A stretch of DNA of 64,000 nucleotides from Gammaproteobacteria bacterium (GCA_030595795.1 JAUVCH010000002.1:7216-71215), one strand, 5' to 3'; positions 44,900 to 64,000 are shown, counted from the stretch's first letter. Made by a program: numbers and translations. The notes: generated from the sequence alone by a model not told the origin.

Positions 44900-46168
44900 A
44901 TGAGTGAGAGACTGGAACGAGGCCTTAGTAAGCTAAGGTCTCAAATTGATCCAAAGGTTAAATCGTTTTTCTCGAGCTGTGTGCACTGTGGAATTTGTGC
45001 AGAATCCTGTTTGTTTTTTACTGAAACCCGTGATCCTCGCTATACACCTATTTATAAAACCGAGCCATTGCGTAAGGTCTGGCAACAGGAATATACGTTC
45101 TGGGGAAAGTTAGCCAGTAAGTTGGGGATAGCAGCGCCGATAGCAGAGCAGGATTTAGCCGACTGGGAGGAACTGGTTTACGATGGTTGCTCGATGTGCG
45201 GTCGCTGTAGCATGGTTTGCCCAATGGGTATAGATATTGCGCAGATTATCTTCAAGGTCAAAACTGGTCTGTCGGCGGCAGGATTCTCGCCACCAGATCT
45301 TGCCGAAACCACTCAACGTGCAGTCGATATTGGTAGCCCGATGGGTGTGAAGCTCCCCGCATTGCAAGCTCAAATAGGCCATATCGAAGAAGAAATAAAT
45401 TTAAAAATCCCGGTCGATGTCGAAGGGTCAGAGTATATGGCGCTGCTGTCGTCGATGGAAATTATGTATTTCCCGGAGTATATTTCGGCCCTTGCAAAAA
45501 TATTCCATCAGGCTGGCGTTAGCTGGACACTTTGCTCCGATGCGTTTGAGGCAACAAACTCCGGTCTGCAAATTGGTAATACCGAGGTAGCCGGGGTTTT
45601 GGTCGAAAGGATTGTTGCCGGTGCCGAGAAGCTGAAGGTGAAAAACGTGATTAGCCCGGAATGCGGTCACGCTTATACAGCGATTCGATGGGAGGGGCCT
45701 AATTTCATCGGCAGACCTTATTCCTTTAAAGTCGTGCATATCCTGGAACTACTCGACGAACTACTCCAGTCAGGCCGTCTGAAAACAACGGGTAAGGAAT
45801 CTTCTCGACTCACTTTTCACGATCCGTGTTCTATCGTGCGTAGGGGTGGGGTTGAGACGCAACCACGTCATATATTAAATGCTATAGCAGAAAATGCGGT
45901 TGAAATGACCGAGCACGGTGCTATGAACTGGTGCTGTGGCGGTGGTGGTGGCGTCAGTGGCAATGAAAGAGCAGAGCCGCTAAAACTAAAAGTCTTTAAC
46001 CGAAAAAAATCACAGCTCGAGGAGCTTGATGTTGAAACTATTGTAACTTCCTGTTCCAATTGCCGATTGGTCATCGAAGATGGTCTGGAAGCAAATGATA
46101 TGGAAATTAATATAGTCGGTTTAACCGAAATGCTTGCTGACCACCTGGTTGTAGATAATTCTCAATAG
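44900..46168 (+). CDS. CCG-domain iron-sulfur oxidoreductase (HdrD/DsrK/GlpC-like)
   Basis: About 420 aa. Two ferredoxin-like motifs (CVHCGICAESC, CSMCGRCSMVCP) followed by Cys-rich CCG-type regions (HDPCS..., NWCCGGGGG, TSCSNCR). ATG 44900 after GGAGG; ORF track start 44813 overlaps the upstream gene. Confidence 0.7.
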   Translation: MSERLERGLSKLRSQIDPKVKSFFSSCVHCGICAESCLFFTETRDPRYTPIYKTEPLRKVWQQEYTFWGKLASKLGIAAPIAEQDLADWEELVYDGCSMCGRCSMVCPMGIDIAQIIFKVKTGLSAAGFSPPDLAETTQRAVDIGSPMGVKLPALQAQIGHIEEEINLKIPVDVEGSEYMALLSSMEIMYFPEYISALAKIFHQAGVSWTLCSDAFEATNSGLQIGNTEVAGVLVERIVAGAEKLKVKNVISPECGHAYTAIRWEGPNFIGRPYSFKVVHILELLDELLQSGRLKTTGKESSRLTFHDPCSIVRRGGVETQPRHILNAIAENAVEMTEHGAMNWCCGGGGGVSGNERAEPLKLKVFNRKKSQLEELDVETIVTSCSNCRLVIEDGLEANDMEINIVGLTEMLADHLVVDNSQ

Positions 46169-46665: not shown

Positions 46666-47208
46666 ATGAAAAAAAAATATATCAATAAAATATCTCTCGT
46701 AATCGTGCTGATCGCCTTAAGCGTTGTGCCGTTCCTTGCGAAGGCGGCTGAAGTTACACAAGAGCAGATAAAAGGACTGGATGAACAGGTTCAGGATATC
46801 AAGGAAGATGTACTCGATCTAACAACCGAGCTAAGCCTGCTCGAAGAGAAGCTGTTATTTCCCTCCAATACTCAGGTCTCGCTGTTTGTTTCTCTCGATA
46901 GCGGTAAGAAGTTTGTACTTGATGCCATGCAGATTAAGCTTGACGACAAGGTTGTCGCCAAGCATTTATATACTTTCAAGGAGCTAGAGGCTTTAAGGTT
47001 AGGTGGTGTTCAGCGCATTTATACAGGTAATATCAACACTGGGGATCATTCGATGATAGCCAGTTTCTTAGGTCGCGATGCTTCGGGCGAGCAATTCAAA
47101 GGCGTGGCTGATTTTACGGTTAACAAAGCGGTTGGGCCAAAATTTGTCGAAATCAAAATTACCGGCGGCGACTCGGCTGATCAGACGATCAGTTTCCAAG
47201 ACTGGTAA
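46666..47208 (+). CDS. Secreted coiled-coil protein, first gene of the TPR/Ton-like cluster
   Basis: 180 aa. Signal peptide KISLVIVLIALSVVPFLAKA|AE, N-terminal coiled coil, C-terminal beta-rich domain. Reminiscent of the small periplasmic proteins that lead TonB2-type clusters. Confidence 0.5.
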   Translation: MKKKYINKISLVIVLIALSVVPFLAKAAEVTQEQIKGLDEQVQDIKEDVLDLTTELSLLEEKLLFPSNTQVSLFVSLDSGKKFVLDAMQIKLDDKVVAKHLYTFKELEALRLGGVQRIYTGNINTGDHSMIASFLGRDASGEQFKGVADFTVNKAVGPKFVEIKITGGDSADQTISFQDW

Positions 47209-47214: not shown

Positions 47215-49290
47215 TTGAAGCGGAATGTAATATTTATCGCCGCTTTTTTCTGCAGCCTGTCAAGCTATGCGGCAAGTGGGCTAAAAGATGTCGAGCTGCG
47301 TGACCTGTATTTCGGCGAGGTGCTTTTTTATGCCTATCAGGATAAGTATTTTGAGGCGCTGGAACGGCTCGATAGCGAACTAATACAATATTACAGGGTA
47401 GACGAATCCAATCTTGACCCGTTATCCCAGAATCTGGGACAGGCCGAGTTTTCGGTCGGCGATATAGAATTGCAATATCGTATGGATAAGCGCGCTGGAA
47501 AAGCCATACAGGCGGTGCTCGGCAGCGGTATCAACCTGGCAATGCGGAATCAGGCTGCGTTGCAGCTGGCGCGAATGTATTTTCGTAAGAATGATGCGGA
47601 AAGAGCGCTATATGCGCTCGATCTGATACACAATAGAGTCGATATGACGAAGTACCCGGATAAGTCAGTCGACGATCTTCGGGGTGTAGAACCGGAAAAC
47701 TTCAAGATAGATGTTCTTTATCTGCGTGCTCTGGCCTATATTAGCACCGGGCAGTTTACCAATGCTGTCGAAATTCTCGATTCCCTGCGTAATGAAAAAT
47801 CAATAAAAGGCTATGTATTGTATAACCTGGGTATTGCGCTGATTCAGGCTCAACAGGAACTACAAGGATTAGAAGTACTCGATGAGCTGGGCATGCTGGA
47901 AACCCAGGATAAAAATCTGCAGGCACTCAAGGATAAAGCCAATTTAAAGATCGCCTATCGATTGCTCGATTCCGGCAATGCGGAGCAGGCTCGGATCTAT
48001 TTTCAACGAATTCGTCTCGATGGGCCATACTCAAATCAGGCGCTGCTGGGCGCAGGCTGGGCTGAAGCTGCACTGGATCGCTATGAGCGAGCTCTGGTAC
48101 CCTGGACAATTCTGCACAAAAGAGAAAAAACCAATCATTCGGTACAGGAATCGTTAATGTCGGTGCCTTATGCCTATGGGAAATTACAGGCCTACGGCAA
48201 ATCGGCCAATATGTATGCCGAGGCAATGGATATGTTTGCCTATGAAATATCCCGGCTCGACGACTCAATAAAGGCCATTCGAGGTGGAAAATTTCTCGAA
48301 GCATTAGTCGATGAGAAATCCAGACAGGATGAAAACTGGGTAGTAAATTTGCGAGAATTGCCCGATGCGCCGGAAACCCGTTATATCCTCGATCTGTTGG
48401 CATCGAGTGATTTTCAGACTTCGTATAATAACTACCGAGATTTGGCGGATTTGAAAGTACGAATCGAAACCTGGTTGGCTAACCTTAAGGTTTTCGAGGA
48501 AATTATTGATATTCGTCGAGCCTATCAAGAGCCTTTGCTACCCATAGTCGGGGAGCGTTTCGAGAAGATCGATGCCAGGGCAAAACTACGCCTGGAACAA
48601 CGAAACAGTCTGGCTGATAAAATTAAGAATATATTGATTGCGCCGCGACCAGATTTTCTGGCGACGGCTGACGAACGCCTGGCGTCGGATCGGGTAACGG
48701 CATTCGAGCAATACATAGCCGAGCACCCTGGAAAAGTCACTGGTGAACAGATCTATCGCGTTAAACGCCTGCGCGGTTTGTTGTCGTGGCGCTTGCAAAG
48801 CGAATATGACCAACGCCTAACCGAAGCTTATGATCATTTGTTGTCGCTGGATGAGACTACCGAGGCATTCAAAAAACGATATGGTTCTTTTATTCGTACC
48901 CGCCAGGCTGCGACGCAAAGTTATGAAGGATATCAATCAGTCATTAGACAGCTCCGCACCGGATTGTTTTCTGCGCAACGAAAGTTGAAAGGTGTTATGG
49001 CCAAACAGGGCAGGTTCCTCGAAACTATGGCGGAGAATGAGCTTGATCGTCGCCGCAAGCGCCTCGAAGATTATCAGATTAAGGCGCGATTTGCGTTGGC
49101 AGAAAACTATGACCGAGTAACCAAGGCGGATCAGGATAAGTTAATCGAGGAACAGAATCAGCTTCGGGAGGAAAAGCAAAAGCAACTTGAGCTTGAAAAA
49201 GAAGCCCAGAAGGCCGAGGAGTCGGCGCCATCAGCGGAAGATAGCTTAGATAAGGGTTCTTCAATTTTGAATAATGTACCCGCCAACTGA
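47215..49290 (+). CDS. Secreted TPR-repeat protein with C-terminal K/E-rich coiled coil
   Basis: 691 aa. TTG start, signal peptide, repeated A/L/Y-rich 34-residue helical-hairpin pattern. C-terminal EEQNQLREEKQKQLELEKEAQKAEE. Confidence 0.6.
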   Translation: MKRNVIFIAAFFCSLSSYAASGLKDVELRDLYFGEVLFYAYQDKYFEALERLDSELIQYYRVDESNLDPLSQNLGQAEFSVGDIELQYRMDKRAGKAIQAVLGSGINLAMRNQAALQLARMYFRKNDAERALYALDLIHNRVDMTKYPDKSVDDLRGVEPENFKIDVLYLRALAYISTGQFTNAVEILDSLRNEKSIKGYVLYNLGIALIQAQQELQGLEVLDELGMLETQDKNLQALKDKANLKIAYRLLDSGNAEQARIYFQRIRLDGPYSNQALLGAGWAEAALDRYERALVPWTILHKREKTNHSVQESLMSVPYAYGKLQAYGKSANMYAEAMDMFAYEISRLDDSIKAIRGGKFLEALVDEKSRQDENWVVNLRELPDAPETRYILDLLASSDFQTSYNNYRDLADLKVRIETWLANLKVFEEIIDIRRAYQEPLLPIVGERFEKIDARAKLRLEQRNSLADKIKNILIAPRPDFLATADERLASDRVTAFEQYIAEHPGKVTGEQIYRVKRLRGLLSWRLQSEYDQRLTEAYDHLLSLDETTEAFKKRYGSFIRTRQAATQSYEGYQSVIRQLRTGLFSAQRKLKGVMAKQGRFLETMAENELDRRRKRLEDYQIKARFALAENYDRVTKADQDKLIEEQNQLREEKQKQLELEKEAQKAEESAPSAEDSLDKGSSILNNVPAN

Positions 49291-52200
49291 TGTCTGTCAA
49301 AAATCACAAATGTATCAATTTCTGTAAAGCGGCATTAGTCCTGGCGCTAGTTTGGATGCTGGCGTCTTGCGCCACAGGAACCGACGGTACAACCCTGGCC
49401 AGTCTGGAAAATGTCGAATTCGAAGTAATTGACGAAAAGGTTACGGACAGTCTCGAAAAAGCACTGGCAAGCTATCAGGACTTTTTGGAGAATACCCCCG
49501 ATACCGAAATGACGCCGGAAGCCTTGCGTCGCCTGGCTGATCTGAAAATTCAGAAAGAGCAATTCAACGAGAATACTCAAATTATCGAGTCGGAGGCGCT
49601 CGCAACTACAAGCACCCAAAGAAACGTTACTGGTACAGAGACAAGCACTGTGCAGTCCATCACCGAGATAGAGATGCCGGAAACTGTGTCCGTGCCTGAT
49701 AATGGCAATACCTCAGAACAACAAAGCATTACCGATCAGGCGAGCCCTATTGCGGCAATCGACGAAAGTGATAAAGCTTTCGACGAAAGGGCGGGTGAGA
49801 AAATCGAAATCAGCGACTCTAGTCAACAGCTAGAACTGCCTGAAGACGAGAGTGCTGAGGTAGGACAGGACTTACAAACCGTCGGTGCAATGGAAGCCAT
49901 CGAGATATATAAGAACCTACTGAAAAACCATCCGTTATTTGAACGTAATGATCAGGTGGTTTACCAATTGTCGCGCGCTTATGAGGATACCGGGCAGATA
50001 GATATCGCCATGGATACGATCATATTGCTGCTTTCGAAATACCCGAACTCGCGTCATGTCGATGAATCGCAGTTTCGACTGGCTGAATTCTATTTCTCCC
50101 GTAAAAAATATCTCGATGCCGAAGAGTCATACCAGGCTGTGGCGGCGCGTGGAGAAGACACGGAGTTTTATGAGTTATCACTTTATAAACTCGGGTGGTC
50201 TTATTTCAAACAGGAATTATATGAAGAAGCATTACAGGCTTTTATCAAAATGCTGGACTATAAAATCGAGAATGGTTTTGAACTGGATAATATTGAAAGC
50301 CAGATAGATGGAAAAAGGGTTGAAGATACTTATCGAGTTATCAGTTTAAGTTTCTCCTACCTCGAAGGGCCTCAGTCCATTGTCGAATTTTTTAACCAAA
50401 ATGGCCCTAGATCTTATGAGTCGAGTATCTATAGCCACCTGGGAGAATACTACTTTTCTAAGAGGCGTTTTGCCGATGCAAGCAATACCTATAAGACTTT
50501 TATTGAGCGTAATCCTCTATCCGCCGAATCGGCTTATTTCAGTATTCGTATTATCGAAATTTACGACAAAGGTGGTTTTCCCAAGCTGGTTATAGATACC
50601 AAAAAGGCCTTCGCCAAAACATATAGCCCCGATTCCACCTACTGGACATATTTCGACATTAATGAACATCCAGATATCCGCTTCTATGTGAAGACTAATC
50701 TGACTGATTTGGCGAATCACTATCATGCTTTGTATCAGAATAAGAAGTTGGAGAAGGCAAAGGGTGAAAATTATGAGGAGGCGATATACTGGTATCGGGA
50801 ATTTCTGGCCTCTTTCTTTGATGACTCCGAAGCTCCGGGTCTCAATAACCAACTGGCCGGTTTGATGCTAGAGCAAAAGGACTTTTTCCAGGCGGCGGGT
50901 GAATACGAGCGCACTGCGTACGAATATCCACCCCATGATGGATCGTCCGGTGCGGGCTATGCGGCTGTCTATGCGTATCGAGAGTACTATAAAGTTGTTG
51001 AACAATCACAGAGATACAATATCAGCCGGGAAATTGTGCGCAGTTCGATACGATTTTTTGAGGTATTTCCCGATCATAAACATGCCCCGGTGGTACTTGT
51101 TGCCGCTGTAGAAGACCTATATGGACTCGAAGATTTTGAACGTGCCATCGTCTATGGTCAGCGTGCAATCGAAACTTACCCCCGAGCCGACCGGAAATTG
51201 CTGCGTTCTGCCTGGATGGCTGTGGCGCATTCTTCATTTAATATCGCTAATTACCAGGGGGCTGAAATTGCCTATAGCGAAACACTGATTCTTACCGATA
51301 TAAATGACAAGAGTTACGAATCACTTAACGAAAACCTGGCTGCCTCTATTTATAAACAGGGTGAACAGGCGCTCAAGCTGGAAGACCATCAGTTAGCCGC
51401 CGATCATTTCCTGCGGGTCGCTAAAGTCGTGCCCAAATCTAAAATTCGTCCGACAGCCGAATACGACGCCGCCACTTCGTTGTTAATACTGAAACAGTGG
51501 AAGAATGTTGCCAACTTGCTTGAAGGCTTCAGAAAACGTTTTCCTCAGCATAAACTGCTACCGGATATCACCAAAAAACTGGCAATTGTTTATAAGGAGG
51601 ATGGTCGTTATTTGCTATCGGCAGCAGAATTTGAGCGTATAGAAAGAGAAAATCCAGAAAACGAAGCCTTGCGCCGCGAAGCCTTATACCAGGCTGCTGA
51701 ACTGTATGACCGGGCTGACGCTAAAGGTAGAGTTTTATTGACCTATCAAAAACTGGTTAACTATTTTCCCGATCCAATCGAAGAGGCGCTAGAAACACGC
51801 CAGAAAATGGCCGATATTTATCAGCAGCAGGGTAATCAAATTGAATATCTGGCTCAGCTCGAAAGAATTGTCGAGATCGACGCCACCGGTGGCAGTGGAC
51901 GTACAGACAGAACCCAATATCTTGCCGCGCATGCCGCGTTGGTATTAGCAGTTCCCAAATGGGAAGCATTTACGCGAGTGGCCCTTGTGGAGCCTTTCAA
52001 GGCCAATTTGGCTAAAAAGAAAAAGCGAATGAGTATTGCTATCGATTCGTTTGCAAAGCTGGTTGATTATCAGGTTGGCGACGTTACTGCTGCGGCAACT
52101 TTTTACCTTGCCGAAATATATTTTGACTTTAATGTGTCTCTGGTCGAATCAGAAAGACCGACTAACCTGAATGATGAAGAACTGGAAGAATATGAGCTGA

Positions 52201-52469
52201 TTATCGAAGATCAGGCTTATCCTTTTGAGGCAAAGGCTATCGATGTTCATGAAAAAAATATGGAATTACTGGATATTGGGGTCTATAACGAATGGATCGA
52301 TAAGAGTATCGCAAAACTATCGGTGTTGTTGCCCGCGCGATACGCTAAAACTGAGCAAGACAGTACTGTTATCACTTTGATACAGCCTCCGAATATCGTC
52401 AATGCAGCGGTTAATGAAACCGAGGACTCGACAGTAATCGAATCCTTACCGGAACCGGTGGAGCAATAG
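49290..52469 (+). CDS. Large TPR-repeat lipoprotein with acidic disordered N-terminal region
   Basis: 1059 aa. Lipobox MLASC, about 200-aa D/E/S/T-rich segment, then about 800 aa of TPR-like repeats. Start overlaps the upstream stop. Confidence 0.6.
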   Translation: MSVKNHKCINFCKAALVLALVWMLASCATGTDGTTLASLENVEFEVIDEKVTDSLEKALASYQDFLENTPDTEMTPEALRRLADLKIQKEQFNENTQIIESEALATTSTQRNVTGTETSTVQSITEIEMPETVSVPDNGNTSEQQSITDQASPIAAIDESDKAFDERAGEKIEISDSSQQLELPEDESAEVGQDLQTVGAMEAIEIYKNLLKNHPLFERNDQVVYQLSRAYEDTGQIDIAMDTIILLLSKYPNSRHVDESQFRLAEFYFSRKKYLDAEESYQAVAARGEDTEFYELSLYKLGWSYFKQELYEEALQAFIKMLDYKIENGFELDNIESQIDGKRVEDTYRVISLSFSYLEGPQSIVEFFNQNGPRSYESSIYSHLGEYYFSKRRFADASNTYKTFIERNPLSAESAYFSIRIIEIYDKGGFPKLVIDTKKAFAKTYSPDSTYWTYFDINEHPDIRFYVKTNLTDLANHYHALYQNKKLEKAKGENYEEAIYWYREFLASFFDDSEAPGLNNQLAGLMLEQKDFFQAAGEYERTAYEYPPHDGSSGAGYAAVYAYREYYKVVEQSQRYNISREIVRSSIRFFEVFPDHKHAPVVLVAAVEDLYGLEDFERAIVYGQRAIETYPRADRKLLRSAWMAVAHSSFNIANYQGAEIAYSETLILTDINDKSYESLNENLAASIYKQGEQALKLEDHQLAADHFLRVAKVVPKSKIRPTAEYDAATSLLILKQWKNVANLLEGFRKRFPQHKLLPDITKKLAIVYKEDGRYLLSAAEFERIERENPENEALRREALYQAAELYDRADAKGRVLLTYQKLVNYFPDPIEEALETRQKMADIYQQQGNQIEYLAQLERIVEIDATGGSGRTDRTQYLAAHAALVLAVPKWEAFTRVALVEPFKANLAKKKKRMSIAIDSFAKLVDYQVGDVTAAATFYLAEIYFDFNVSLVESERPTNLNDEELEEYELIIEDQAYPFEAKAIDVHEKNMELLDIGVYNEWIDKSIAKLSVLLPARYAKTEQDSTVITLIQPPNIVNAAVNETEDSTVIESLPEPVEQ

Positions 52470-52473: not shown

Positions 52474-53085
52474 ATGATAAAAACATTTCATACTGGGGTG
52501 GTGATATTAGGCTGTTTGATCTTAATTTCCTGTGCCGGGGGTCAGGCACCGCGTGTTGAAAAAGCTGCGGCAGTAAAGTTATCCCCACCGCCAGAAGATT
52601 CGGCATATATTAATCTGGACGCAGATATTGAGTCGGATTTCCTCGATGCAGTAGACAGGATGGAAAATAGTGACTATGTATCGGCAATAGAAAAGCTGGA
52701 ATCGGTTATAGGTCGCGAAAAACGGTTGATTGCACCGTTTGTCAATATTGCGATTGCGTATCGCAAAACAGGTGAAGTTGAGCAGGCAGAAAAAAATCTG
52801 GCCAAAGCCCTGGAGTTGGACCCTGTGCATCCCGTTGCGAATAACGAGCTGGGTTTAATTTACCGTCAGGCCGGAAAATTTGAGGAAGCCAGAGCGGTCT
52901 ATGAGCTGGTGATCAAAAACCATCCAGATTCCACTGCGGCAATGATTAATCTAGGCGTATTATGTGATTTGTATATGCACGATTATGAATGTGCCCTCGA
53001 ACAATTTGAGCGTTATCTGGCGCTAAATCCGGATGATAAGAAAATTTTCATCTGGGTAGCTGATGTAAAACAAAGAGTAAAATAA
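52474..53085 (+). CDS. Small TPR-repeat lipoprotein
   Basis: 203 aa. Lipobox LILISC, three to four clear TPR units. Confidence 0.6.
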   Translation: MIKTFHTGVVILGCLILISCAGGQAPRVEKAAAVKLSPPPEDSAYINLDADIESDFLDAVDRMENSDYVSAIEKLESVIGREKRLIAPFVNIAIAYRKTGEVEQAEKNLAKALELDPVHPVANNELGLIYRQAGKFEEARAVYELVIKNHPDSTAAMINLGVLCDLYMHDYECALEQFERYLALNPDDKKIFIWVADVKQRVK

Positions 53086-53104: not shown

Positions 53105-53389
53105 ATGTTAATTAGAATTCTATTTAGTTTAGTAATTGCCGGAGTAACCTTGCAAGCGCCCGTCATGGCCCAGGAAAAAAAAATTGATTCCGACGTTAAG
53201 GAACTATCTGGCATCTCGATCATAGGTAATCAGGAAGCGCCCAAATCGCTTTACATTATACCCTGGCAAAACTCCGAAGTTGGGGTGGCCAGCAGTTTAC
53301 AATCAGGTCTGTTTGACGACAGTATGAAACCTTTGTCCAAAGAAGTGTTTCTGAGAGAGCTTAATTTTTACGAATTAAGTCATAATTGA
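53105..53389 (+). CDS. Small secreted protein of the Ton-like cluster
   Basis: 94 aa with signal peptide. Confidence 0.4.
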   Translation: MLIRILFSLVIAGVTLQAPVMAQEKKIDSDVKELSGISIIGNQEAPKSLYIIPWQNSEVGVASSLQSGLFDDSMKPLSKEVFLRELNFYELSHN

Positions 53390-54467: not shown

Positions 54468-55022
54468 ATGAACAGAAGGAAACACGGTAAATCCAGGGAA
54501 GCTCCGGAGCTTGATATCACGGCATTCCTGAATTTAATGGTTGTGCTGGTGCCTTTTCTTCTTGTCTCGGCAGTATTTTCTCGTATCACGATACTGGAGC
54601 TCAATATGCCTCCGGGCGCTGGTGCGGCAGCAGCTATCCCTCCCAAGATTAGTATTGAAGTTGTAATTCGTGACGAGGTCATGGAAATTAGTGACGGGCG
54701 AAAGGTAATCGTTCGTTTTCCGAAAATTGGAAATACTGACCCCAAAACACTCGAGGAGGATCCCAGAGTCTATGACCTGATTCAGCTCACTAATTATCTG
54801 TTAAAGATTAAGGCGAACTATCCCGACAAGACCGATTCCATTATTTTAATGGAACCTGGCATTGAATACAGGCATCTGGTCACTGTTATGGATGCGATGA
54901 GAAATGCTGAAATTCCTTTGAATGAGGCTTCCGCCGGTGGCACGGAAGGGGCTGGCGAAGTTCAACCCGAATTTCAGAAAATCGAATTGTTCCCCGATAT
55001 ATCGATAGGCGATGCACCATGA
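54468..55022 (+). CDS. ExbD/TolR-family protein (long form)
   Basis: 184 aa. N-terminal LDITAFLNLMVVLVPFLLV single TM typical of ExbD/TolR, periplasmic domain. Confidence 0.65.
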   Translation: MNRRKHGKSREAPELDITAFLNLMVVLVPFLLVSAVFSRITILELNMPPGAGAAAAIPPKISIEVVIRDEVMEISDGRKVIVRFPKIGNTDPKTLEEDPRVYDLIQLTNYLLKIKANYPDKTDSIILMEPGIEYRHLVTVMDAMRNAEIPLNEASAGGTEGAGEVQPEFQKIELFPDISIGDAP

Positions 55023-55510
55023 GAAACAGTAATCGTCGTATCGCGCGTATGGGGCGAAGCCGAAAAAAATTACCTGGCATGAATCTGACATCGCTGATGG
55101 ATGTATTTACTATTCTGGTATTTTTTCTGCTGACAAATTCGGCAACTAACGAAGCACTGGAGGCGCCTAAATCGATTTCCTTGCCCGCATCGGTGGTAGA
55201 GACCAAGCCACAGGAAACGGTAGTGATACTGGTGACGCCTGAAAATATACTGGTTCAGGGTAAAATAGTTTCGAGCACAGTAGATGTTAATAATAGCCCG
55301 GCAGTTGTGGTGGAAGCGATAAAGAAAGCGTTGTTAGTACAGCGAAGCAGGGCAATCGGTATCGATGTAAGCAAAGAACCTGAAGTAAACATATTGGCCG
55401 ACAGGAAAATACCTTTCAGTCTGCTGAAAAAAATTATGTCCAGTTGTACCAGTGCAGGATATAGCAAGATCTCGTTGGCTGTAATTCAGAAAGCATCGCA
55501 GAGTTCGTAG
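55019..55510 (+). CDS. ExbD/TolR-family protein
   Basis: 163 aa. MNLTSLMDVFTILVFFLL TM helix, ExbD-like periplasmic domain. 4-nt overlaps with both neighbours. Confidence 0.75.
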   Translation: MRNSNRRIARMGRSRKKLPGMNLTSLMDVFTILVFFLLTNSATNEALEAPKSISLPASVVETKPQETVVILVTPENILVQGKIVSSTVDVNNSPAVVVEAIKKALLVQRSRAIGIDVSKEPEVNILADRKIPFSLLKKIMSSCTSAGYSKISLAVIQKASQSS

Positions 55511-55516: not shown

Positions 55517-56923
55517 ATGGACGATATCAGTAAAAGAAAGAAAAAAGTCAGGGCCAAGCAAAAGCGAGCCTGGCGACTCCTTTTGGAATGCAAAAGTCAA
55601 CAGCGGGATATTGAGGCTGAACATGTCAGGTTACTAAAGAAAAGAGTGCGTTACGACGCGCTTATTGAGGTATCGACAAATCTGGCCAGATTAGACGCGT
55701 TAGGCGCGTCAGATCTTTTCTGGGGTGGGTTGGGTGAAGAGAGGCGTGGGCGAGATCACCTCGCTCGCGTGCATAATCTGGTTACTGAATACGAGAGTCG
55801 ACTCGAAGCCTCAATACAGGCTCGCCAGGATATCTGGAATAAAATTCAGGTACTCAACGATAAAACTAGTGAATACAAAGAGCAGGGCCAGGTACTACTC
55901 GAAGTAGAGGAAGAATCTCGTGATGAGTTTGTTATTGATCGGGAACCAGGGGGGTCGTTATATCGTACCTCAGTCATGCCCTGGACGGTTCATGGAGAGG
56001 ATGAGAAGCGCTTTCGAAAAATATTACTGCTGATATTGTTTTTAACTATTTTGCTGGGTTACCTGGTTCCTTCGTGGAATATAACGGTAGTCGAAAGAGA
56101 GGTAAAAATAGAAGTGCCTGAGCGCCTCGCCAGGCTATTGCTTGAGAAGGCGCCACCACCACCTCCACCGAAGAAAGAAGAAGTCGAGGAAGAGAAAGAG
56201 GAAGAGGAAGAGCCAAAACCGGAGAAAAAAGAGGAGAAGAAGGAAGAAATTGAGAAGAAGCCTGAACCCGAGCAAAAGCCGAAGCCGACCAAGGAGAAAA
56301 AGCCGGTCAAGAAAAAGGCCCAAAGTGCCGGTGTGCTGGCCTTCAAGAATGACTTTGCTGGGTTGCTGGATCTCGATAGTGATGTAGATAGCAAGCTGGG
56401 AGCTAAAGCCAGTCTTACCAATCTTGGGGCCACTGCAAAGAAAAGCACCAGATCAATAATTACTTCTCAGTCAACATCGGGCTCAGGTGGAATCAATACT
56501 GCGGCGATTAGTAAAAATGTCGGCGGCACGGGCAGTGGCCTTGAAGGAGTTGGCTTCTCTCGTGTCGAAAGTACAATCGGCACAGAATATGCGACTGACG
56601 ATCGACCTTTAAGTGAAGGGCCAGGACCTTCCCGTACAGACGAAGAAATCCAGATCGTATTTGATAAATACAAATCTGCGCTATACCGAATTTATAATCG
56701 GGAACTACGTAAGAATCCCACCCTACAGGGCAAAATGGTGCTACGTTTGACTATTGAGCCCGATGGTAAGGTATCCGCTGCTAGTGTGGAATCTAGCGAT
56801 ATGGATGCCCCGGATCTGGATAAAAAGATTGTCGCCAGGGTAAAGAAGTTTAAGTTCGGAGCGAAGGAGGGAGTGCCTACCATAACGATTCTCTTCCCCA
56901 TTGACTTTCTACCCGCAAACTAG
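55517..56923 (+). CDS. TonB-family energy transducer-like protein with long Pro/Glu/Lys-rich linker
   Basis: 468 aa. Cytoplasmic coiled-coil N-terminus, TM helix ILLLILFLTILLGYLV, PPPPPPKKEEVEEEKEEEEEPKPEKKEEKK... linker, S/T/G-rich segment, C-terminal TonB-like domain (...KMVLRLTIEPDGKVSAASVESSDMD...). Confidence 0.7.
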   Translation: MDDISKRKKKVRAKQKRAWRLLLECKSQQRDIEAEHVRLLKKRVRYDALIEVSTNLARLDALGASDLFWGGLGEERRGRDHLARVHNLVTEYESRLEASIQARQDIWNKIQVLNDKTSEYKEQGQVLLEVEEESRDEFVIDREPGGSLYRTSVMPWTVHGEDEKRFRKILLLILFLTILLGYLVPSWNITVVEREVKIEVPERLARLLLEKAPPPPPPKKEEVEEEKEEEEEPKPEKKEEKKEEIEKKPEPEQKPKPTKEKKPVKKKAQSAGVLAFKNDFAGLLDLDSDVDSKLGAKASLTNLGATAKKSTRSIITSQSTSGSGGINTAAISKNVGGTGSGLEGVGFSRVESTIGTEYATDDRPLSEGPGPSRTDEEIQIVFDKYKSALYRIYNRELRKNPTLQGKMVLRLTIEPDGKVSAASVESSDMDAPDLDKKIVARVKKFKFGAKEGVPTITILFPIDFLPAN

Positions 56924-57232
56924 GGCGGAATCATCTGCCTATTCTTCCCGCTTCGCAAATAAACGTAAATTTTCGGTTCTGCTGGCATGTATAATGAAAA
57001 ATTTAACATTATTAGTTAAACTATTGAAAATAATAAGGAAAGCGTAACTATTTTTATTGTTGTTCAGACCTCATCGTCTATACTAAATTGTGCAATATGC
57101 CCCAGTGGCCCGCGTTGCTAAATGAAAGGCCTTTTCTATTGAATTAAAGATCCGATAACCAGAACTGACACTGTTGTGAAAAAAATATTATCAGCACTTC
57201 TGAGTTGGTTCGCCCTTAAAGCTGAGGGCGAA

Positions 57233-60200
57233 ATGCTCTCAGATGCCCGGGAATCCAATACCAGAACTACAGGCAGATCGAAGTCTGGGTTATGGCTGCT
57301 ACTTTTGTTGATGCTGTTTGGGGTGGCATCACCGGCGCTTGCGGGTGAGTTTTGCGTACAAAACCCCAGCTTTTTTGGCGTCGACGATACTGGTGACGGC
57401 ATTAACGATTTTGGTATTGTTGATGGTGAAGATCCTGCCACTGTGCAATTCATTAACGACAACAATGTTACTCAGATCACTATCGATGGTGATTGTACTT
57501 TTCGCAACTGGACGGCTAGCAACCCGTTAACTGTCACCCTCAATTTTCAGACTAGCGACCCGTCGATTTATCTCATCACGTTTGATAATGTGGTTTTTAC
57601 CGGCAACATGGCCTGCGCCAGCATCGACCATCGTATCTGGTTTGTTAATGGCGACCCAGCTGATTTTAATAGCTCCTGTCAGGATTTGTTTATACCGGTC
57701 GAATCTATCAATAAAGCTGTTCCTGCCGGCAAAACCACGGTTGGTATTGGTGAAGTCTTTACCTACACGCTGAAGGTACCCGTTTTATACGACCCGGCGA
57801 ATGACGTGGTGATTAGTGATTCGGGTTCGTTGAACGAGTTGCATAGCATTGTCGTTACCGATGATATCAACGAAATTGGCGCTAACCTGACCCTGGTAGG
57901 GGCACCTACCGTAGTGTGGGCGGCCGGTAGTTCTCAAAGCGGATCTGTATCGCACAATTTTACTAATAGTGCAGGGCTACTTACTTTTGAAATTCTGCCA
58001 ACTGGTATAGCACAGGTGTCAATAGGCGACCAGTTCGAAATCAAAATTACGCTTTCGGTCGACGATACTAATGTTATCGGTACGCAGTTTTTTAATACGG
58101 CAAGGTGGGTATTCGGGCGGTTAATCGAGTTAGACCCGAATGATGATAATGGTGATGGCGATCTCGAACTGACTTTCTTCGACCCCTTACCCGGTGAAAA
58201 TGGTGTCTCCGAACTATTAACTATCGGTGCCCCGGATCTGACTGTTACCAAGTCGAGTCCTGACACCGCGTTAAATATCGGTATACAGGGGACATTTTTT
58301 ATCGATGTGCAGAATACGGGTAATACCGATGCCTGGGATTTCACTATCATCGATGAAATTCCGGGTGCCGCGGATAATCCGGCTCTACCGTTAGTCGCGG
58401 GTATGTGTCAATTCGATCCGAGTGCCACGGTCACCGCACAGATTTTTGAAGCCGATGGTACGACGGCTGTCAGCCCTGTGTTAACAGCTGGTGCCGATTA
58501 TTCGATTAGTTTCAATAATGCAATACCCCTGCCCTGTGAGTTGACGCTAGTCTTTGACAGTTCCGGCCCCAATGCGGCTGTGCTCGCGCCCGGCGAACGT
58601 CTGATCATTAGCTATCAGTCAGAACTCGACAGTGCTCCACCGATGGATCAGGATGGTGCCTTACTAACCAATGTCGCGGGTGCGACCCAATGGTATAGCT
58701 CGGATCCCAACGGTACGCCAATAGCTACTGTTACTAATGAAACGCTAACTGATGGTACGCCTGGTGACACCACCGATCACGAATCCAGCTATACCATTAC
58801 CGCTGGTTTATCGGGTTACTTTTTTACCAAGTCCGTGCAAAACATTACTACCGGGGCGAACCCAGCAAGCACCGCAGCGGCCGGTGATACCCTGCGGTAC
58901 CAATTGCGCGTATTTAATATCGACCAGACGATCTCTTCTATCAACATTGTCGACAATGACTTAATCGCTGCTAATTTTGATACAGGTTCTTTTTCGATTG
59001 TCTCTTCGAATGCGGTTTCAGAAAATTACGACCCAGGCACCGGAACATTAACCATCGATGGTGGCAGCGTGTCAGCGCTGAATTTTCTGCTGGTCGAATA
59101 CGATATTAATCTCGCGGCAGGCCTGACTAATGGCGCAGTCGTATCCAACCAGGCGTCAATGACAGCGACCGGCACGATATCGCCTACCACGTTAAGTGAC
59201 GATCCCAATATTAACGGTGTCGATGACCCAACCACTCTACCCAATCCAGACCCAACCGTCATTACCATACTGCAGCCCGGCCCTCTGCTGAAAACCGGCG
59301 GCCCTGCAACAGCAACCATTGGTAATGAAATCACCTACAGAATCACGGTGCCAGAAGTTCCGCTTGCAACGCCGTTATACGATGTACGCATGCTGGATAA
59401 TTTGACGACCTCGAGTGCCGATCTGGAATTTGTTAGCGCGACGGTTGTTTCCGGTGGTAGCTGGACTCTGACCAATACCGGAACCAGTAATAACCTGGTC
59501 ATCGAAGATACCGGAGCAGGTATCGATATACCGACCAGCGGACAGGCGGTGATCGATGTCACGGTACGCGTATCGAACACCGTGAATAATCAAATTGGAG
59601 ATAGCTTCAACAATACGGCAACCTATACCTACAACCGCACCAACAATCTACTTGCGTCGCAGACACTGGGTAGTGGTGATACCACCCCTGTAACTACAGT
59701 AATCACTGAACCCGATATCTCGACAATTACCAAAATAGCTGACAATACGACACCGACCGCCGGCAGCACCATTCGCTATAGCGTGACGTTGACAGCAACT
59801 AGTGGCGCTAATATTTCGGACGTATTCGATGTCACTCTCAGTGATTCTTTGGATCTGGGGCTGGCATACGCAGGTAGCCCGACTGTTACAATCGGCAGTG
59901 GTGTCGGGAGTGATAATATCATTACCGACCCGGATGTCACCGGTGATGGTATCACCATACCGCAGTCGCTGGTGTGGAGCACGGTAGAAGCGGATATCGA
60001 CATCGATGCTGGCGAAACCATTATCATCGCCTACGATGTGCTTGTGCTGAACAATGTTTTGGCGAACCAGTCTCTAAGCAACAGTGTCATCGCGCAATGG
60101 ACCGGCATCGACGGTGTCAACACCTTCGAGCGCACCGGCATAGACGGTGTTGGCGGCGTGCTTAACGATTACGCGGTCGCACCTGTCGTGGAAACTGTAA

Positions 60201-63200
60201 CCACTGCGGATATCGTTACTACGATTAATAAAATTCGTAGCTCCGACACTTTTGTTGCGGGTGACGATAATGTCCGTATCGGCGATGTGATCGATTACAC
60301 ACTCACCATTCCGGTACCGGAAGGCACGCTTGGTAATTTGCAACTGGTCGATACCCTGAGCCAGGGTCTGGACTTCCTTGGTGTCGTCAGCATCAACGGT
60401 AATATCGGCCCGGCACCTTATTCTGCAATAGCACCATTTACCCATACCGATATTGCGGCTCCGGTCGAAGCGGGGGACCCTGCAACAGGCCCGAGCACGG
60501 TGACCTGGAATATTGGCAATTTATCGAATGCAGTCAATGATGGTCTTAGCGACAACTTCGTCATCGTTTATCAGGCGCAGGTACTTAACAACGATGTACT
60601 GGTGCAGGTCAACAGCACGGCGCTTAGCAACGGCATCACCATGACCTACGATACGGCAACGGGTACTGTTATTAGTACAGACAATGACACCGTCATCAAC
60701 GTGCTGCAGCCGAATGTGGCAGTGAACAAATCGGCTACACCCGCCAATGGTGATGTCTTCATTGATACCGGAGAAGTCATCACTTACAGCGTTGATCTGG
60801 TCAACACCGGTGCAGCGCCTGCCTATGACCTGGTACTCGAAGATATTATTCCGGTTGGCTTGCGGGCCGCAGTCCCGACTACCACCAGCATTACCCGGCA
60901 CACGACATCGACCGATGCCCTGGTCGCCACTCTGGCAGTTCTCGCCCCGACCTATAGCGTTGCTACCGGCCTCGCCACCTGGAATTTCGATACGGGCGTG
61001 GCTGATACCTATACCATCCCGGTCGGTGAAACTCTGCGTATCGTCTATACCGTGACCGCCGATGCCGGTATCGCTCAGGGCCTGATTCTGACTAATGCGG
61101 CCACTGCTACGCTTTACTATTCCTTCGATGATGAGGCGATACCAGCGGGTGCAGCTTCCACTGATCGCGAAATCTATGGCCCCAGCAATACCGCCAGCAC
61201 TACTTTGTTTACCTCTGCTCCACCGAGCAAGACTCTGATCACGCCAGCGGAAGCGACTATCGGTGAAGAGGTTGTCTATCAGGTTACCGTTCCCGGCGTA
61301 GCAAGTTCGAGTGCGCTATTCGATGTCAGTATTACCGATACGCTCGATACGAATCTGGAAATCACCAGTGTCACCGTCGCTGGCGTAGCTGGTGCTGTGG
61401 ACGCTAGCACCGCCAGCCAGATGAATATTGCTATCCCGACAATTCCGGCCGGACAACAGGCAACCATAGAACTGCGTACGCGACTACTCAATGTGCTTAG
61501 TGCGCAACAGGGCGTCGATATCAATAATACGGTTAGTTACAGCTACGCGTTTACTCCGGGTGGGACAGTGCAACCTACTCTGGCCAGTACCGACATAGTC
61601 ACGGTTAATATTGTCGAGCCGAACATTAGCGCGATCAGCAAGACCGTAGATATTCCTGCGCCAACATCGGGTGAAACGATTCGTTATAGCGTGCAGTTAG
61701 CCGCCAGTGGTGGTGTTGACTCATCCGATGTATTCGATGTGACGCTCACTGATAATCTCGATCTCGGTTTGATTTACGTCGGCAACCCGACGGTTACCGG
61801 GGCGTTGAACACCATTGGTGTGCCAGTGATTACTGGTAATGGAATCACGATTGCACAGACGCTGGTGTGGAGTTCGGCTGCTGTCGATACGAACATAGAT
61901 ATTGTCGAGGGCACGCCGATAACCATCGATTACGATGTGCGTCTCGACAACAGTGTCCTGGCTGGGCAAATTCTGAATAACAGCGCCGTCGCGCAGTGGA
62001 CCGGCATCGATGGTGCCAATGGCTTCGAACGCGATGGCTCCGATGGTATCGGCGGGTTAAATGACTACATCACCGTACCTGCCACGGTCGCACTCAATTT
62101 ACCCGGCATCAACACCACTATTAGCAAGCTACGTAGTAGCGATACCTTCGGTGCTGCCGATGACGATGTGCGAATTGGGGATATCGTCGAATATACGCTA
62201 ACAATTCCGATGCCAGAAGGTTCAATAAGCAATTTGCAACTGGTCGACACGCTGCCGCAGGGGCTCGATTTTGAAGGTATCGTCAGTATCAATGGCAATA
62301 TCGGTCCGGCACCTTATACGGCGGTCGCACCGTTCAGTCATGGCAATATCGATGCCACAGATGTAGTGGAATCTGGCGACCCGGCGTTAGGCGCTACGAC
62401 AATCACCTGGACTATTGGCACGCTCTCCAATCTACCGGTGGATAATCTGGCAAATGACTTTGTCATCGTGTACCGCGCACGGGTGATGAATCTCGTATTT
62501 GCGCACTCGCTCCTCAGTTTCTCGCTGAATAATATCGTTACCATGAGCTACGATACGGCTAGCGGCACGATCATCACTTCAGATCTGGGCACCGTCATTA
62601 CCGCTGGGCAGCCACTGTTGACGGTTAGCAAGACTGCGGCTCCTGCTGGCGGAGACACTATTATCGATGCGAGTGAGCTGATTGAATATACGATAGAGGT
62701 GGTCAACGGCGGCACGGCGCCAGCCTATGATTTGCTGTTACAGGATATTATTCCGCTGGGTATGCGCAATGGCGCGGCAACCGTAACCATGGTTAGCACC
62801 GAGTTACTGGTGGCGGGAGCTCTGGCCAATCCACCGCTGGTTTACAACGCCGCAACCGGATTGATACTCTGGGATCTGGATACTGGTGTCGCGGATACCT
62901 ACACGATTCCACCAGGAGACACCCTGAGATTAGTATACCGGGTGCAGGCAGATGCCGATCTGGGGCCGGGTCAAACCATGACCAATGCGGCGACCGCGAA
63001 TCTCTACTACTCCTTCGATGACGATGCGGTGCCAACACTCGGTTCAGTGAGCGGTATACGCGAGATTTACGGGCCGAGTAATACCGCCACGACCACGTTG
63101 ACTACTGCTGCCCCTGCGGCGCTACTAAAAGAGACTACACAAACGACGGCTTTCATTGGCGAACAGTTTACCTATCGCATTACCGTGCCTGCGACACCGC

Positions 63201-64000
63201 AGACCACGTCGCTGGAAGATGTCCGCATCCTCGATGACCTCTCTACTTCGTTGGCCGACCTGAGTTTTGTCAGCGTGACCAAAATTTCGGGATCCGAGCC
63301 ATGGACACCCGTGAATACCAGCGGTGATTCGACCAATTTGGTGATCGAAGATACTAGTATTGGCATCGATATTCCCGCAGGCGATCAGGCGGTAATCGAG
63401 ATTACCGTGGTAGTGAATGATAGCGTCGATAATTTTGCTGGTCTGGTGTTCAACAATACTGCCGATTATACCTACACGGTAGCTCAGACTCCCGGTTTAC
63501 CAGGTACCAGCGGCGATATGACGATCATTGGCGCAGATACGCTAGTGCTACAGAAAACCGGCCCAGTCACCATGCGCATCGGTCTTCCTGAAACCTTTAC
63601 CATCGATATTCAAAACACTGCCACGGCTACAGCCTGGGATATCACCATTGAGGATGTATTACCCGATCCGTCACCGGGTGGTATGTGCGATACCGCGCCA
63701 ACTATTCTCAGTGCCCAGGTTTTCGAGGCCGATGGTGTTACAGCCGTGTCGGGCCTCCTGTCCGAAGGCAGTGATTTTACCAGCAGTTTCATCGGCGTTC
63801 CTGTTTGTAGCTTAACCATCGTCATGCAATCTCCGAGTACCGCAATCGCACCCACGCAAAAATTAATCATTACCTACGAAGCCTTTATCAATAACGACAG
63901 TATCGGCGGCACCAGCCTGACTAATATTGCCGCCGCAACGCAATGGTTTAGCGACGATACCGCTGGTGGTGGCGCAACTGGTGAAATACGAACCTATACC
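57233..64000 (+). CDS. Giant secreted DUF11-like ('conserved repeat domain') surface protein / putative adhesin, 3' end beyond window
   Basis: Single open frame from GTG 57176 / ATG 57233 (signal peptide GRSKSGLWLLLLLMLFGVASPALA|GEF) to the window edge with no stop, over 2250 aa. Absent from the ORF track only because it is unterminated. Repeated modules with the DUF11-type signature, e.g. LTVSKTAAPAGGDTIIDASELIEYTIEVVNGGTAPAYDLLLQDIIPLGM. Ala/Thr/Val/Asp/Gly-rich, almost Cys-free. Confidence 0.7.
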   Translation, partial: MLSDARESNTRTTGRSKSGLWLLLLLMLFGVASPALAGEFCVQNPSFFGVDDTGDGINDFGIVDGEDPATVQFINDNNVTQITIDGDCTFRNWTASNPLTVTLNFQTSDPSIYLITFDNVVFTGNMACASIDHRIWFVNGDPADFNSSCQDLFIPVESINKAVPAGKTTVGIGEVFTYTLKVPVLYDPANDVVISDSGSLNELHSIVVTDDINEIGANLTLVGAPTVVWAAGSSQSGSVSHNFTNSAGLLTFEILPTGIAQVSIGDQFEIKITLSVDDTNVIGTQFFNTARWVFGRLIELDPNDDNGDGDLELTFFDPLPGENGVSELLTIGAPDLTVTKSSPDTALNIGIQGTFFIDVQNTGNTDAWDFTIIDEIPGAADNPALPLVAGMCQFDPSATVTAQIFEADGTTAVSPVLTAGADYSISFNNAIPLPCELTLVFDSSGPNAAVLAPGERLIISYQSELDSAPPMDQDGALLTNVAGATQWYSSDPNGTPIATVTNETLTDGTPGDTTDHESSYTITAGLSGYFFTKSVQNITTGANPASTAAAGDTLRYQLRVFNIDQTISSINIVDNDLIAANFDTGSFSIVSSNAVSENYDPGTGTLTIDGGSVSALNFLLVEYDINLAAGLTNGAVVSNQASMTATGTISPTTLSDDPNINGVDDPTTLPNPDPTVITILQPGPLLKTGGPATATIGNEITYRITVPEVPLATPLYDVRMLDNLTTSSADLEFVSATVVSGGSWTLTNTGTSNNLVIEDTGAGIDIPTSGQAVIDVTVRVSNTVNNQIGDSFNNTATYTYNRTNNLLASQTLGSGDTTPVTTVITEPDISTITKIADNTTPTAGSTIRYSVTLTATSGANISDVFDVTLSDSLDLGLAYAGSPTVTIGSGVGSDNIITDPDVTGDGITIPQSLVWSTVEADIDIDAGETIIIAYDVLVLNNVLANQSLSNSVIAQWTGIDGVNTFERTGIDGVGGVLNDYAVAPVVETVTTADIVTTINKIRSSDTFVAGDDNVRIGDVIDYTLTIPVPEGTLGNLQLVDTLSQGLDFLGVVSINGNIGPAPYSAIAPFTHTDIAAPVEAGDPATGPSTVTWNIGNLSNAVNDGLSDNFVIVYQAQVLNNDVLVQVNSTALSNGITMTYDTATGTVISTDNDTVINVLQPNVAVNKSATPANGDVFIDTGEVITYSVDLVNTGAAPAYDLVLEDIIPVGLRAAVPTTTSITRHTTSTDALVATLAVLAPTYSVATGLATWNFDTGVADTYTIPVGETLRIVYTVTADAGIAQGLILTNAATATLYYSFDDEAIPAGAASTDREIYGPSNTASTTLFTSAPPSKTLITPAEATIGEEVVYQVTVPGVASSSALFDVSITDTLDTNLEITSVTVAGVAGAVDASTASQMNIAIPTIPAGQQATIELRTRLLNVLSAQQGVDINNTVSYSYAFTPGGTVQPTLASTDIVTVNIVEPNISAISKTVDIPAPTSGETIRYSVQLAASGGVDSSDVFDVTLTDNLDLGLIYVGNPTVTGALNTIGVPVITGNGITIAQTLVWSSAAVDTNIDIVEGTPITIDYDVRLDNSVLAGQILNNSAVAQWTGIDGANGFERDGSDGIGGLNDYITVPATVALNLPGINTTISKLRSSDTFGAADDDVRIGDIVEYTLTIPMPEGSISNLQLVDTLPQGLDFEGIVSINGNIGPAPYTAVAPFSHGNIDATDVVESGDPALGATTITWTIGTLSNLPVDNLANDFVIVYRARVMNLVFAHSLLSFSLNNIVTMSYDTASGTIITSDLGTVITAGQPLLTVSKTAAPAGGDTIIDASELIEYTIEVVNGGTAPAYDLLLQDIIPLGMRNGAATVTMVSTELLVAGALANPPLVYNAATGLILWDLDTGVADTYTIPPGDTLRLVYRVQADADLGPGQTMTNAATANLYYSFDDDAVPTLGSVSGIREIYGPSNTATTTLTTAAPAALLKETTQTTAFIGEQFTYRITVPATPQTTSLEDVRILDDLSTSLADLSFVSVTKISGSEPWTPVNTSGDSTNLVIEDTSIGIDIPAGDQAVIEITVVVNDSVDNFAGLVFNNTADYTYTVAQTPGLPGTSGDMTIIGADTLVLQKTGPVTMRIGLPETFTIDIQNTATATAWDITIEDVLPDPSPGGMCDTAPTILSAQVFEADGVTAVSGLLSEGSDFTSSFIGVPVCSLTIVMQSPSTAIAPTQKLIITYEAFINNDSIGGTSLTNIAAATQWFSDDTAGGGATGEIRTYT
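59288..64000 (+). repeat. In-frame tandem super-repeats (about 1938 and about 1899 nt units, third unit truncated by the window) inside the giant gene
   Basis: Homologous anchor codons at 59291, 61229 and 63128, e.g. LKTGGPATATIGNEITYRITVP / SKTLITPAEATIGEEVVYQVTVP / LKETTQTTAFIGEQFTYRITVP. Long stretches, e.g. gcgcagtggaccggcatcga at 60096 and 61993, are about 80% identical at nucleotide level. 57.4-59.3 kb holds a more divergent copy. Confidence 0.7.

Follow-up and report, generated by a model that had tools for sequence, protein, structure and literature searches.

The stretch of DNA analysed here, referred to throughout as the window, comprises 64,000 nucleotides (nt) from a Gammaproteobacteria bacterium (GCA_030595795.1, JAUVCH010000002.1:7216-71215), and its last 6.8 kb are occupied by the beginning of a giant gene, here called X. 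Together with a partner gene directly downstream, O, and a compact cluster of nine genes upstream, X forms a conserved 11-gene system. An earlier account of the window made without database searches (the sequence-only reading) had described a single frame, free of stops for 6.8 kb up to the window edge, that encodes a secreted protein of DUF11 immunoglobulin (Ig)-like modules and continues past the window. This description is upheld. The frame on the + strand is uninterrupted from 57143 to 64000 (2,286 codons, zero stops), and a protein search returned P0001, a protein of 3,526 amino acids (aa) that is 100% identical to the entire query. The start codon is the ATG at 57233, where the identical database protein begins, with a GAGGG Shine-Dalgarno sequence 6 nt upstream; the start given by the sequence-only reading (57176) is a GTG in the same frame. 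A cluster mate of P0001, P0121, differs from it by a single residue and is encoded on contig L084, which is 100% identical to window positions 56072-64000 across 7,929 nt, repeats included. This contig was separately built from run SRR18920793 and may derive from the same reads as the window. The open reading frame (ORF) in the window is the N-terminal 64%, or first two-thirds, of a genuine giant exported protein, and since the full length of 3,526 aa can be read on L084, the gene is placed as ending at about 67,813 in window coordinates.

The full protein has a mass of 364 kDa and is acidic, with a predicted pI of 4.05 for the mature form and a Thr content of 12%. Lysine is scarce in P0001 (1.0%, approximately 35 residues) and 17 of these residues are the strand-A Lys of mapped Ig-like domains. 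The guanine-plus-cytosine content of the gene is slightly above that of its surroundings (50–53% vs 47.8%) because the composition of the protein is rich in Thr, Gly, Ala, Asp and Val. As amino acid composition accounts for the higher value, no signal of horizontal transfer was drawn from it.

The giant protein consists of a signal peptide, an N-terminal cap, a long stalk and a C-terminal base (aa numbering from the ATG at 57233; Table 1). The signal peptide ends in LWLLLLLMLFGVASPALA, followed across the predicted cleavage site by GE, and homologues carry an equivalent N-terminal hydrophobic segment terminating in AQA. Only two strongly hydrophobic 19-mers occur in the protein, the signal peptide itself and a segment at aa 2717-2737 that lies within an Ig-like domain. 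The stalk runs in the order A, B1, B2, A′ and then continues with four further domains. The assignment to DUF11 by the sequence-only reading is borne out by hidden Markov models, with 93.5 bits for PF01345 (DUF11/CLIPPER; cut-off 24.6, five stretches) and 139.4 bits for TIGR01451 (cut-off 24, nine stretches); TIGR04226 also scores above its cut-off (206 bits, nine stretches). Using a self-built model, 17 CLIPPER-like domains were mapped in the full protein, in addition to the TIGR04226-type domains. The base (aa 2888-3526, approximately 640 residues) contains two SdrD_B/CnaB-like sandwiches, a Cys-rich insert, another CLIPPER domain and a terminal domain with a βαβαβ arrangement. The last 240 residues were modelled with AlphaFold2 at a pLDDT (predicted local distance difference test) of 82. 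The terminal domain was considered as a possible OmpA-like domain; hhalign comparison with the OmpA-like domains of the partner protein gave the expected register at 2% probability, and the assignment is not claimed.

DUF11 was renamed CLIPPER in a survey of 2025, which describes a fold that forms a Lys-Asn isopeptide bond with resistance to heat and protease, the triad residues in structure 9IFR being K715, D748 and N806 (PMC12617251). In an alignment of 15 CLIPPER domains of the giant protein the strand-A Lys and the Asp are invariant and the last-strand Asn is present in at least 90%, and by inspection the Lys/Asp/Asn triad is found in all 17 domains. This conservation suggests that isopeptide bonds form in the stalk domains. 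A profile of the stalk domains compared with the PDB matched the CLIPPER domain 9ifr (E 1.2e-4, the Lys-bearing strand included) and the grappling-hook protein GhpA (9flp, E 5.4e-15). When the PDB was searched by sequence, neither the window protein nor the cap or base gave anything useful; only the stalk-domain profile produced matches.

The nine genes upstream are densely packed between 46666 and 56923, with gaps of −4 to 42 nt, in the order a-C-D-E-f-R-Q-S-G. Judged by protein families, sizes, order and spacing, they match the Agl-Glt ‘core complex’. Luciano (2011; PMC3169522) gives the members of this complex as aglR, Q and S together with gltC, D, E and G, calls it a functional unit ‘of unknown function’, and lists Cellvibrio, Saccharophagus and Marinobacter among its carriers. 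The layout in the window equals that of GM21_0438-0443 and Gura_3070-3077 in the published tables gene for gene, including the extra small gene, for which Myxococcus has no homologue (Luciano 2011). The locus tags GM21_0441 and Gura_3074 are skipped there at the position equivalent to f. The first gene, a, is related (E 6.5e-52) to a 244-aa Geomonas protein that is located between O and the GltC-like gene. The TonB-type protein G is predicted to have a cytoplasmic N-terminus, a single membrane helix, a Pro/Lys/Glu-rich spacer and a TonB_C-like domain, and its match to NF033760 GltG (E 1.6e-19) lies below the equivalog cut-off. No such model matched the GltC- and GltD-like proteins, the labels of which follow published tables and gene order. 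The large tetratricopeptide repeat (TPR) protein resembles YbgF/CpoB (TIGR02795, 85.5 bits vs a cut-off of 90.1).

The partner protein O is read on L084 (11742-16913), where its gene lies directly downstream of X and is translationally coupled to it, the stop of X overlapping the start of O in the sequence TGATG. It is an exported protein of approximately 1,700 residues in which a signal peptide precedes two OmpA-like domains (aa 94-213, 271-378), and a further one is suggested by its sequence near aa 440-540. A faint OMP_b-brl match was found in one homologue, and the protein ends ...GVFINLVGKI. Its C-terminal region may form a very large, uncharacterised outer-membrane barrel. On one other contig, from a metagenome-assembled genome (MAG), the giant gene and the OmpA-domain gene share a single open frame (L077 1478-16699), by natural fusion or sequencing error.

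Table 1. Features of the giant gene X and its upstream cluster in the window, with long ORFs outside the family that follow the same core cluster in metagenome loci (window coordinates unless a contig is named).
Feature	Coordinates	Strand	Remarks
a, exported 180-aa protein, first gene of the cluster	46666..47208	+	signal peptide
C, GltC-like exported TPR protein, 691 aa	47215..49290	+	size and order as GM21_0438, Gura_3077
D, GltD-like TPR lipoprotein, 1,059 aa, lipobox LASC	49290..52469	+	YbgF-/BamD-like TPR matches; size and order as GM21_0439, Gura_3076
E, GltE-like TPR lipoprotein, 203 aa, lipobox LISC	52474..53085	+	NF033758 GltE E 2.8e-8, below cut-off
f, exported 94-aa protein	53105..53389	+	between E and R; position of the extra gene of Luciano 2011
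R, AglR-like MotA/TolQ/ExbB proton channel, 336 aa	53432..54442	+	PF01618 E 3.4e-24; 3 hydrophobic helices
Q and S, ExbD/TolR-like	54468-55022, 55019-55510 (4-nt overlap)	+	PF02472 E 4e-13, 3.8e-14; one N-terminal helix each
G, GltG-like TonB-type transducer, 468 aa	55517..56923	+	NF033768 AgmX/PglI C-terminal domain, 68 bits (cut-off 40)
Intergenic region before X, 309 nt	56924..57232	+	promoter-like site 57003-57031; near-invariant block ~56996-57066
Giant gene X, codons 1-2256 of 3526	57233..64000, truncated by window edge	+	open frame; identity to P0001
Sec-type signal peptide, aa 1-37	57233..57343	+	read from sequence; predicted cleavage after ALA
Family-specific N-terminal cap, aa 38-170	57344..57742	+	four conserved Cys
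Stalk unit A, aa 172-689	57746..59299	+	three CLIPPER-like Ig domains, 172-290, 349-482, 550-641 (self-built model)
Stalk unit B1, aa 690-1320	59300..61192	+	CLIPPER 696-796, 843-952, 1179-1290; TIGR04226-type ~1009-1140
Stalk unit B2, aa 1321-1953	61193..63091	+	duplicate of B1
Stalk unit A′, start (aa 1954-2470 in full protein)	63092..64000	+	34% identical to unit A
Six long ORFs outside the family	L104 14150-20272, L106 13937-20233, L116 13557-20192, L111 4809-9863, L105 8806-10203, L151 10741-12327

The association between the giant gene, its partner and the core cluster was examined from both sides. In the forward direction, 83 loci holding the giant gene were compared. An OmpA-domain gene lies directly 3′ of it in 75 of the 77 loci in which 1 kb or more of downstream sequence is visible, and the core cluster adjoins it in every locus with sufficient flank (48 of 48). 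Two arrangements occur, a-C-D-E-f-R-Q-S-G-X-O as in the window (13 loci) and X-O-a-C-D... (35 loci), in a set that includes Gammaproteobacteria, Thermodesulfobacteriota, Nitrospirota, Acidobacteriota, Verrucomicrobiota and others. Five apparent exceptions were re-scored as indeterminate. In L010, L011, L018 and L026 this was because a giant ORF without the cap abuts another long + strand ORF, which was read as a split or frameshifted gene, and in L042 the giant ORF is fragmented. As the X-O and core modules are rearranged relative to each other and yet remain adjacent across phyla, a functional link between them is indicated.

For the reverse direction the core-specific gene f was used as a query on metagenome contigs and gave 574 relatives. 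In each of the 15 loci where 1.4 kb or more can be seen beyond the TonB-like gene there is a giant ORF, which belongs to the present family in nine and is another long ORF, with 466 to more than 2,200 aa visible, in the remaining six (Table 1). The three of these six that were inspected (L104, L106 and L116) are giant, with a signal peptide and CLIPPER-like motifs, and are without the family cap. The core machine would appear to have a second family of giant partners.

Both ends of the giant protein are conserved. The cap is N-terminal in 118 of 121 family proteins and the base stands at a constant distance from the C-terminus. Mean identity is highest in the last 316 residues (61%), followed by the distal stalk (56%) and units A, B1, B2 and A′ (41–50%). 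A profile of the last 240 residues recovered 1,262 clusters at 50% identity with E ≤ 1e-30, and among the matches listed this module mostly ends proteins of approximately 2,000–6,900 aa. In a scan of one genome per species, with the conserved region aa 2995-3112 as query, at least 447 loci of the giant family were recovered. The nearest relatives of the window's gene are in Gammaproteobacteria and Thiotrichaceae MAGs; other carriers include Desulfobacterales, Desulfuromonadales, Geotalea, Nitrospirota, Woeseiaceae, Microbulbifer, Acidobacteriota, Gemmatimonadota and Verrucomicrobiota. Culturable carriers with the giant gene beside the cluster are Microbulbifer (L065), Geomonas (L003) and Geotalea (L056). 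The names given to the family by NCBI, ‘isopeptide-forming domain-containing fimbrial protein’ or ‘fimbrial protein’, are misleading.

The sequence-only reading took the stalk repeats to be at least three tandem super-units of about 640 aa (about 1.9 kb) at about 80% nucleotide identity, and hence a hazard for assembly, a substrate for recombinational copy-number variation and a hallmark of phase-variable adhesins and S-layer-like surface proteins. The period is real, with spacings of 1893–1908 nt, but the full units of approximately 633 residues number two rather than three. The supposed third unit is 57% identical to the B units over its first ~130 residues and afterwards has the layout of unit A, at 34% identity. 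Units B1 and B2 share 55% amino acid and 58% nucleotide identity (607 aligned codons), well short of the 80% proposed, and no more than 69% in any 300-nt window. Within 57233-64000 exact direct repeats extend to 17 nt at most, and Tandem Repeats Finder reported nothing in the repeat region. With this level of identity and so short an exact match, the repeats are implausible as substrates for assembly collapse or recombination, and the L084 contig is identical across them.

Comparison with orthologues leads in the same direction. Those at 84, 81 and 80% identity are 3,529, 3,560 and 3,563 aa long with B1 and B2 at unchanged positions, and those at 52–59% identity also retain both units in place. 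Unit B1 is nearer to the orthologous B1 (58–59%) than to its own B2 (53%), and the giant protein of Geomonas has one B unit only. Because diverged orthologues hold both units in place, the B1/B2 duplication is considered ancient, stable and unhomogenised, and no recombination hot spot; the copy-number variation proposed is not supported. The features that would mark phase variation were likewise not seen. There are no homopolymers of 8 bases or more and no short sequence repeats in 56901-64000, and no repeat resembling an invertible promoter upstream of the giant gene, where a single weak 16-nt inverted repeat is present.

Between the core cluster and X, a block of approximately 70 nt (56996-57066) has ~98% identity with the orthologous locus L001, against ~79% for coding DNA. 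The promoter-like site, TTAACA-17-GAAAAT, overlaps this block, which may be a promoter or operator with a leader of ~200 nt. No Rfam family matches the intergenic leader (56924-57232), and no riboswitch or other RNA was found in it.

On the far side of the system, past O on L084, the opposite strand carries genes for a multicopper oxidase, cytochromes c and an aminotransferase. Elsewhere in the window, the ranges 26135-28000, 39564-44245 and 44245-46168 encode AprA (1,092 bits), an FDH3-type formate dehydrogenase and HmcE/F- or TmcC/B-like together with DsrK-like proteins; from these the host is taken to be a sulfur-metabolising bacterium. A 1,111-aa ORF at 19586-22921 has weak matches to the TPR protein of the PEP-CTERM system (PrsT) and to Lsa33.

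The export route was regarded by the sequence-only reading as undecidable from the window. It can be narrowed, as defining features of the type I, type V and type IX secretion systems (T1SS, T5SS and T9SS) and of sortase anchoring are in each case missing. T1SS is argued against by the Sec signal, the absence of RTX repeats (zero GGxGxD motifs in the giant protein) and the absence of ATP-binding cassette (ABC) transporter, membrane-fusion and TolC-like genes in the 10 kb downstream. Neither the giant protein nor O matched a two-partner secretion (TPS), autotransporter or POTRA family in Pfam. No Por_Secre_tail/TIGR04183 sorting domain is present in the last 750 residues (Pfam, NCBIfam, E ≤ 0.01), and as the cluster also has no T9SS gene, membership of the T9SS is excluded. 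Finally, the giant protein has neither an LPXTG motif nor a strongly hydrophobic 19-mer near the C-terminus, and there is no sortase among the called genes within 10 kb on either side.

The reading we favour, with modest confidence, is that the giant protein is the cargo or output fibril of a proton-driven core machine. The protein would enter the periplasm via Sec, and its conserved base would then dock onto the outer-membrane partner O. This protein may be anchored to peptidoglycan by its OmpA-like domains and could span the outer membrane through its C-terminal region. The stalk and cap would project from the cell as a fibril of roughly 70–100 nm that is covalently locked and bears force. 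Energy for passage across the outer membrane, or for a pull on the fibril, might come from the proton-driven motor by way of the TonB-like arm and the TPR lipoproteins. The surface location, the role of O as conduit or anchor and the coupling to the motor are all steps that we infer.

Several observations weigh against this. All the functional links are drawn from gene neighbourhood. A gap of 309 nt with a promoter-like site separates the core operon from X, so that the giant gene is possibly transcribed apart from it. In two loci, L048 and L073, the giant gene is not followed by an OmpA-domain gene within the 8.8–9.2 kb visible downstream. The homology of the TPR genes to Myxococcus GltC, D and E is a judgement from published tables and gene order. 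Moreover, the last ~1,200 residues of O, the putative barrel, have no match in Pfam, NCBIfam or PDB sequence searches. It may be added of L073 that its giant protein is short (2,061 aa) and that the core is still found upstream.

Alternatively, X and O might be a self-sufficient adhesin-anchor pair, in which O passes and anchors the fibril in the manner of two-partner systems while the core does other work, such as envelope maintenance of the Tol-Pal kind, and is only co-located or co-regulated. X-O does shift as a unit relative to the core, giving the two arrangements, X has its own upstream gap and promoter-like site, and the large TPR protein is similar to YbgF/CpoB of Tol-Pal. However, the two modules stay adjacent in all 48 adequately covered loci from many phyla despite their rearrangement, and the reverse test placed a giant ORF beside every core cluster that it covered. 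Moving a 364-kDa protein over the outer membrane also needs an energy source, because the periplasm is without ATP. An independent pair is considered unlikely.

It is less likely still that the giant protein remains inside the envelope, as a covalently locked tether or track that joins O and peptidoglycan to the motor and bears periplasmic force. No recognised outer-membrane sorting signal was found, the isopeptide-type domains do suggest load-bearing, and the terminal domain is weakly like a peptidoglycan-binding fold, a likeness that profile comparison did not confirm. Against this, some 20 Ig-like domains would, from their number, be far too long for the periplasm to hold end to end. GhpA and the CLIPPER adhesin of Acinetobacter, to which the stalk domains are structurally closest, are both surface fibrils, and distal tips typically carry a conserved cap at the N-terminus.

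A phase-variable adhesin or S-layer-like protein with near-identical recombining repeats, perhaps collapsed in assembly, is very improbable. The 1.9-kb period exists and the lengths in the family imply that the number of stalk domains varies over deep time, but the divergence of B1 from B2, the lack of simple repeats, the identical L084 sequence and the closer kinship of each unit with its orthologous partner than with the other unit all speak against it. Hardly credible, lastly, is a classical T1SS adhesin (RTX, LapA/SiiE-like) or T5SS adhesin (autotransporter or two-partner), for although the giant size, the Ig-like stalk and a large downstream outer-membrane protein recalling TpsB are compatible with one, the Sec signal and the missing motifs, genes and families noted above are not.

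Returning to the giant protein as cargo of the core machine, a wider proposal can be put forward tentatively, as one that may well be right but on which we would not rely. The core complex would be a widespread, unrecognised proton-driven system that exports, anchors or pulls one giant isopeptide-locked surface fibril via a dedicated OmpA-domain protein, the window ORF being the cargo, and would be the proteobacterial counterpart, in logic, of the T9SS with SprB or GhpA. The gliding and spore-coat machines of Myxococcus would have evolved from the core complex, gliding through replacement of the fibril and anchor by the Glt outer-membrane platform and CglB.

The protein itself is an ordinary giant repeat protein; its gene setting is not ordinary. 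The core complex has been regarded as a possible ‘basal transport machinery’ the cargo of which is not known (2013; PMC3858216), and papers from the Myxococcus field of 2011 and 2013, together with a preprint of 2020, agree in describing an ancestral core that is widespread, with unknown function and cargo. The near-invariant two-way linkage puts forward concrete candidates for that cargo and for an outer-membrane partner, and makes its function testable in culturable carriers. If the reading is true, the gliding motor could have evolved from an adhesin-handling machine, and there may be a route for very large proteins over the outer membrane beyond the numbered secretion systems. In a literature search that mostly did not extend to subscription journals, no publication was found that links the core complex with a giant DUF11/CLIPPER protein or with the OmpA-domain protein.

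The nine genes in the window belong to the same families as the Agl-Glt core, with the same sizes and order, and the giant family stands beside that core in Geomonas and Geotalea (PMC3169522). The core as published, in the text, tables and legends of that paper, consists of seven genes and one extra, and the giant gene, O and gene a are not named there (PMC3169522). Gliding in Myxococcus uses additional Glt proteins and the CglB adhesin, none of which is found here. Similarly, the motor recalls Tol-Pal and TonB-ExbBD, with a MotA/TolQ/ExbB channel, an ExbD/TolR pair, a Pro-rich TonB/TolA-like transducer, a YbgF-like TPR protein and an OmpA-like module. Unlike those systems, the cluster has no TolB, Pal lipoprotein or TonB-dependent receptor, and its large TPR proteins and giant fibril gene have no counterpart in them.

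As for the fibril, the CLIPPER adhesin B9T28_05395 of Acinetobacter silvestris (9IFR; PMC12617251) is likewise a Gram-negative protein with a signal peptide and tandem CnaA-like Ig domains that bear the Lys-Asp-Asn triad. The giant protein differs in having no CshA-like head and a different base, and its OmpA-like domains are on a separate downstream protein rather than fused to it. The paper on that adhesin mentions no gene-context link to a Tol/Exb-like motor (PMC12617251). The sortase-assembled pilins of Gram-positive bacteria (RrgB, SpaA), from which the NCBI name originates, are polymers of subunits, whereas the present protein is a single giant chain the relatives of which are mostly diderm.

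A closer likeness is found in GhpA of Aureispira and SprB of Flavobacterium (10.1101/2024.01.29.577165), which resemble the giant protein in carrying a Sec signal, in their giant chain of Ig-like domains with the head at the N-terminus, and in a conserved region for docking at the C-terminus. The giant protein has no T9SS C-terminal domain, its hosts are not Bacteroidota and there are no T9SS-type genes in the cluster. In Aureispira the barrel and OmpA-like anchors are encoded directly downstream as GhpB (a PorP-like barrel) and GhpC (a PorE-like OmpA domain), whereas here there is one protein of ~1,700 aa in that position. Export by the T9SS is driven by a proton-powered inner-membrane motor (PorL/M or GldL/M), and the motor in the window combines TolQR/ExbBD-like components with a TonB-like arm and TPR lipoproteins. 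PorL/M and GldL/M are related to the Mot/Tol/Exb family. Among known systems, the T9SS with GhpA or SprB offers the nearest working analogy for the giant-fibril system.

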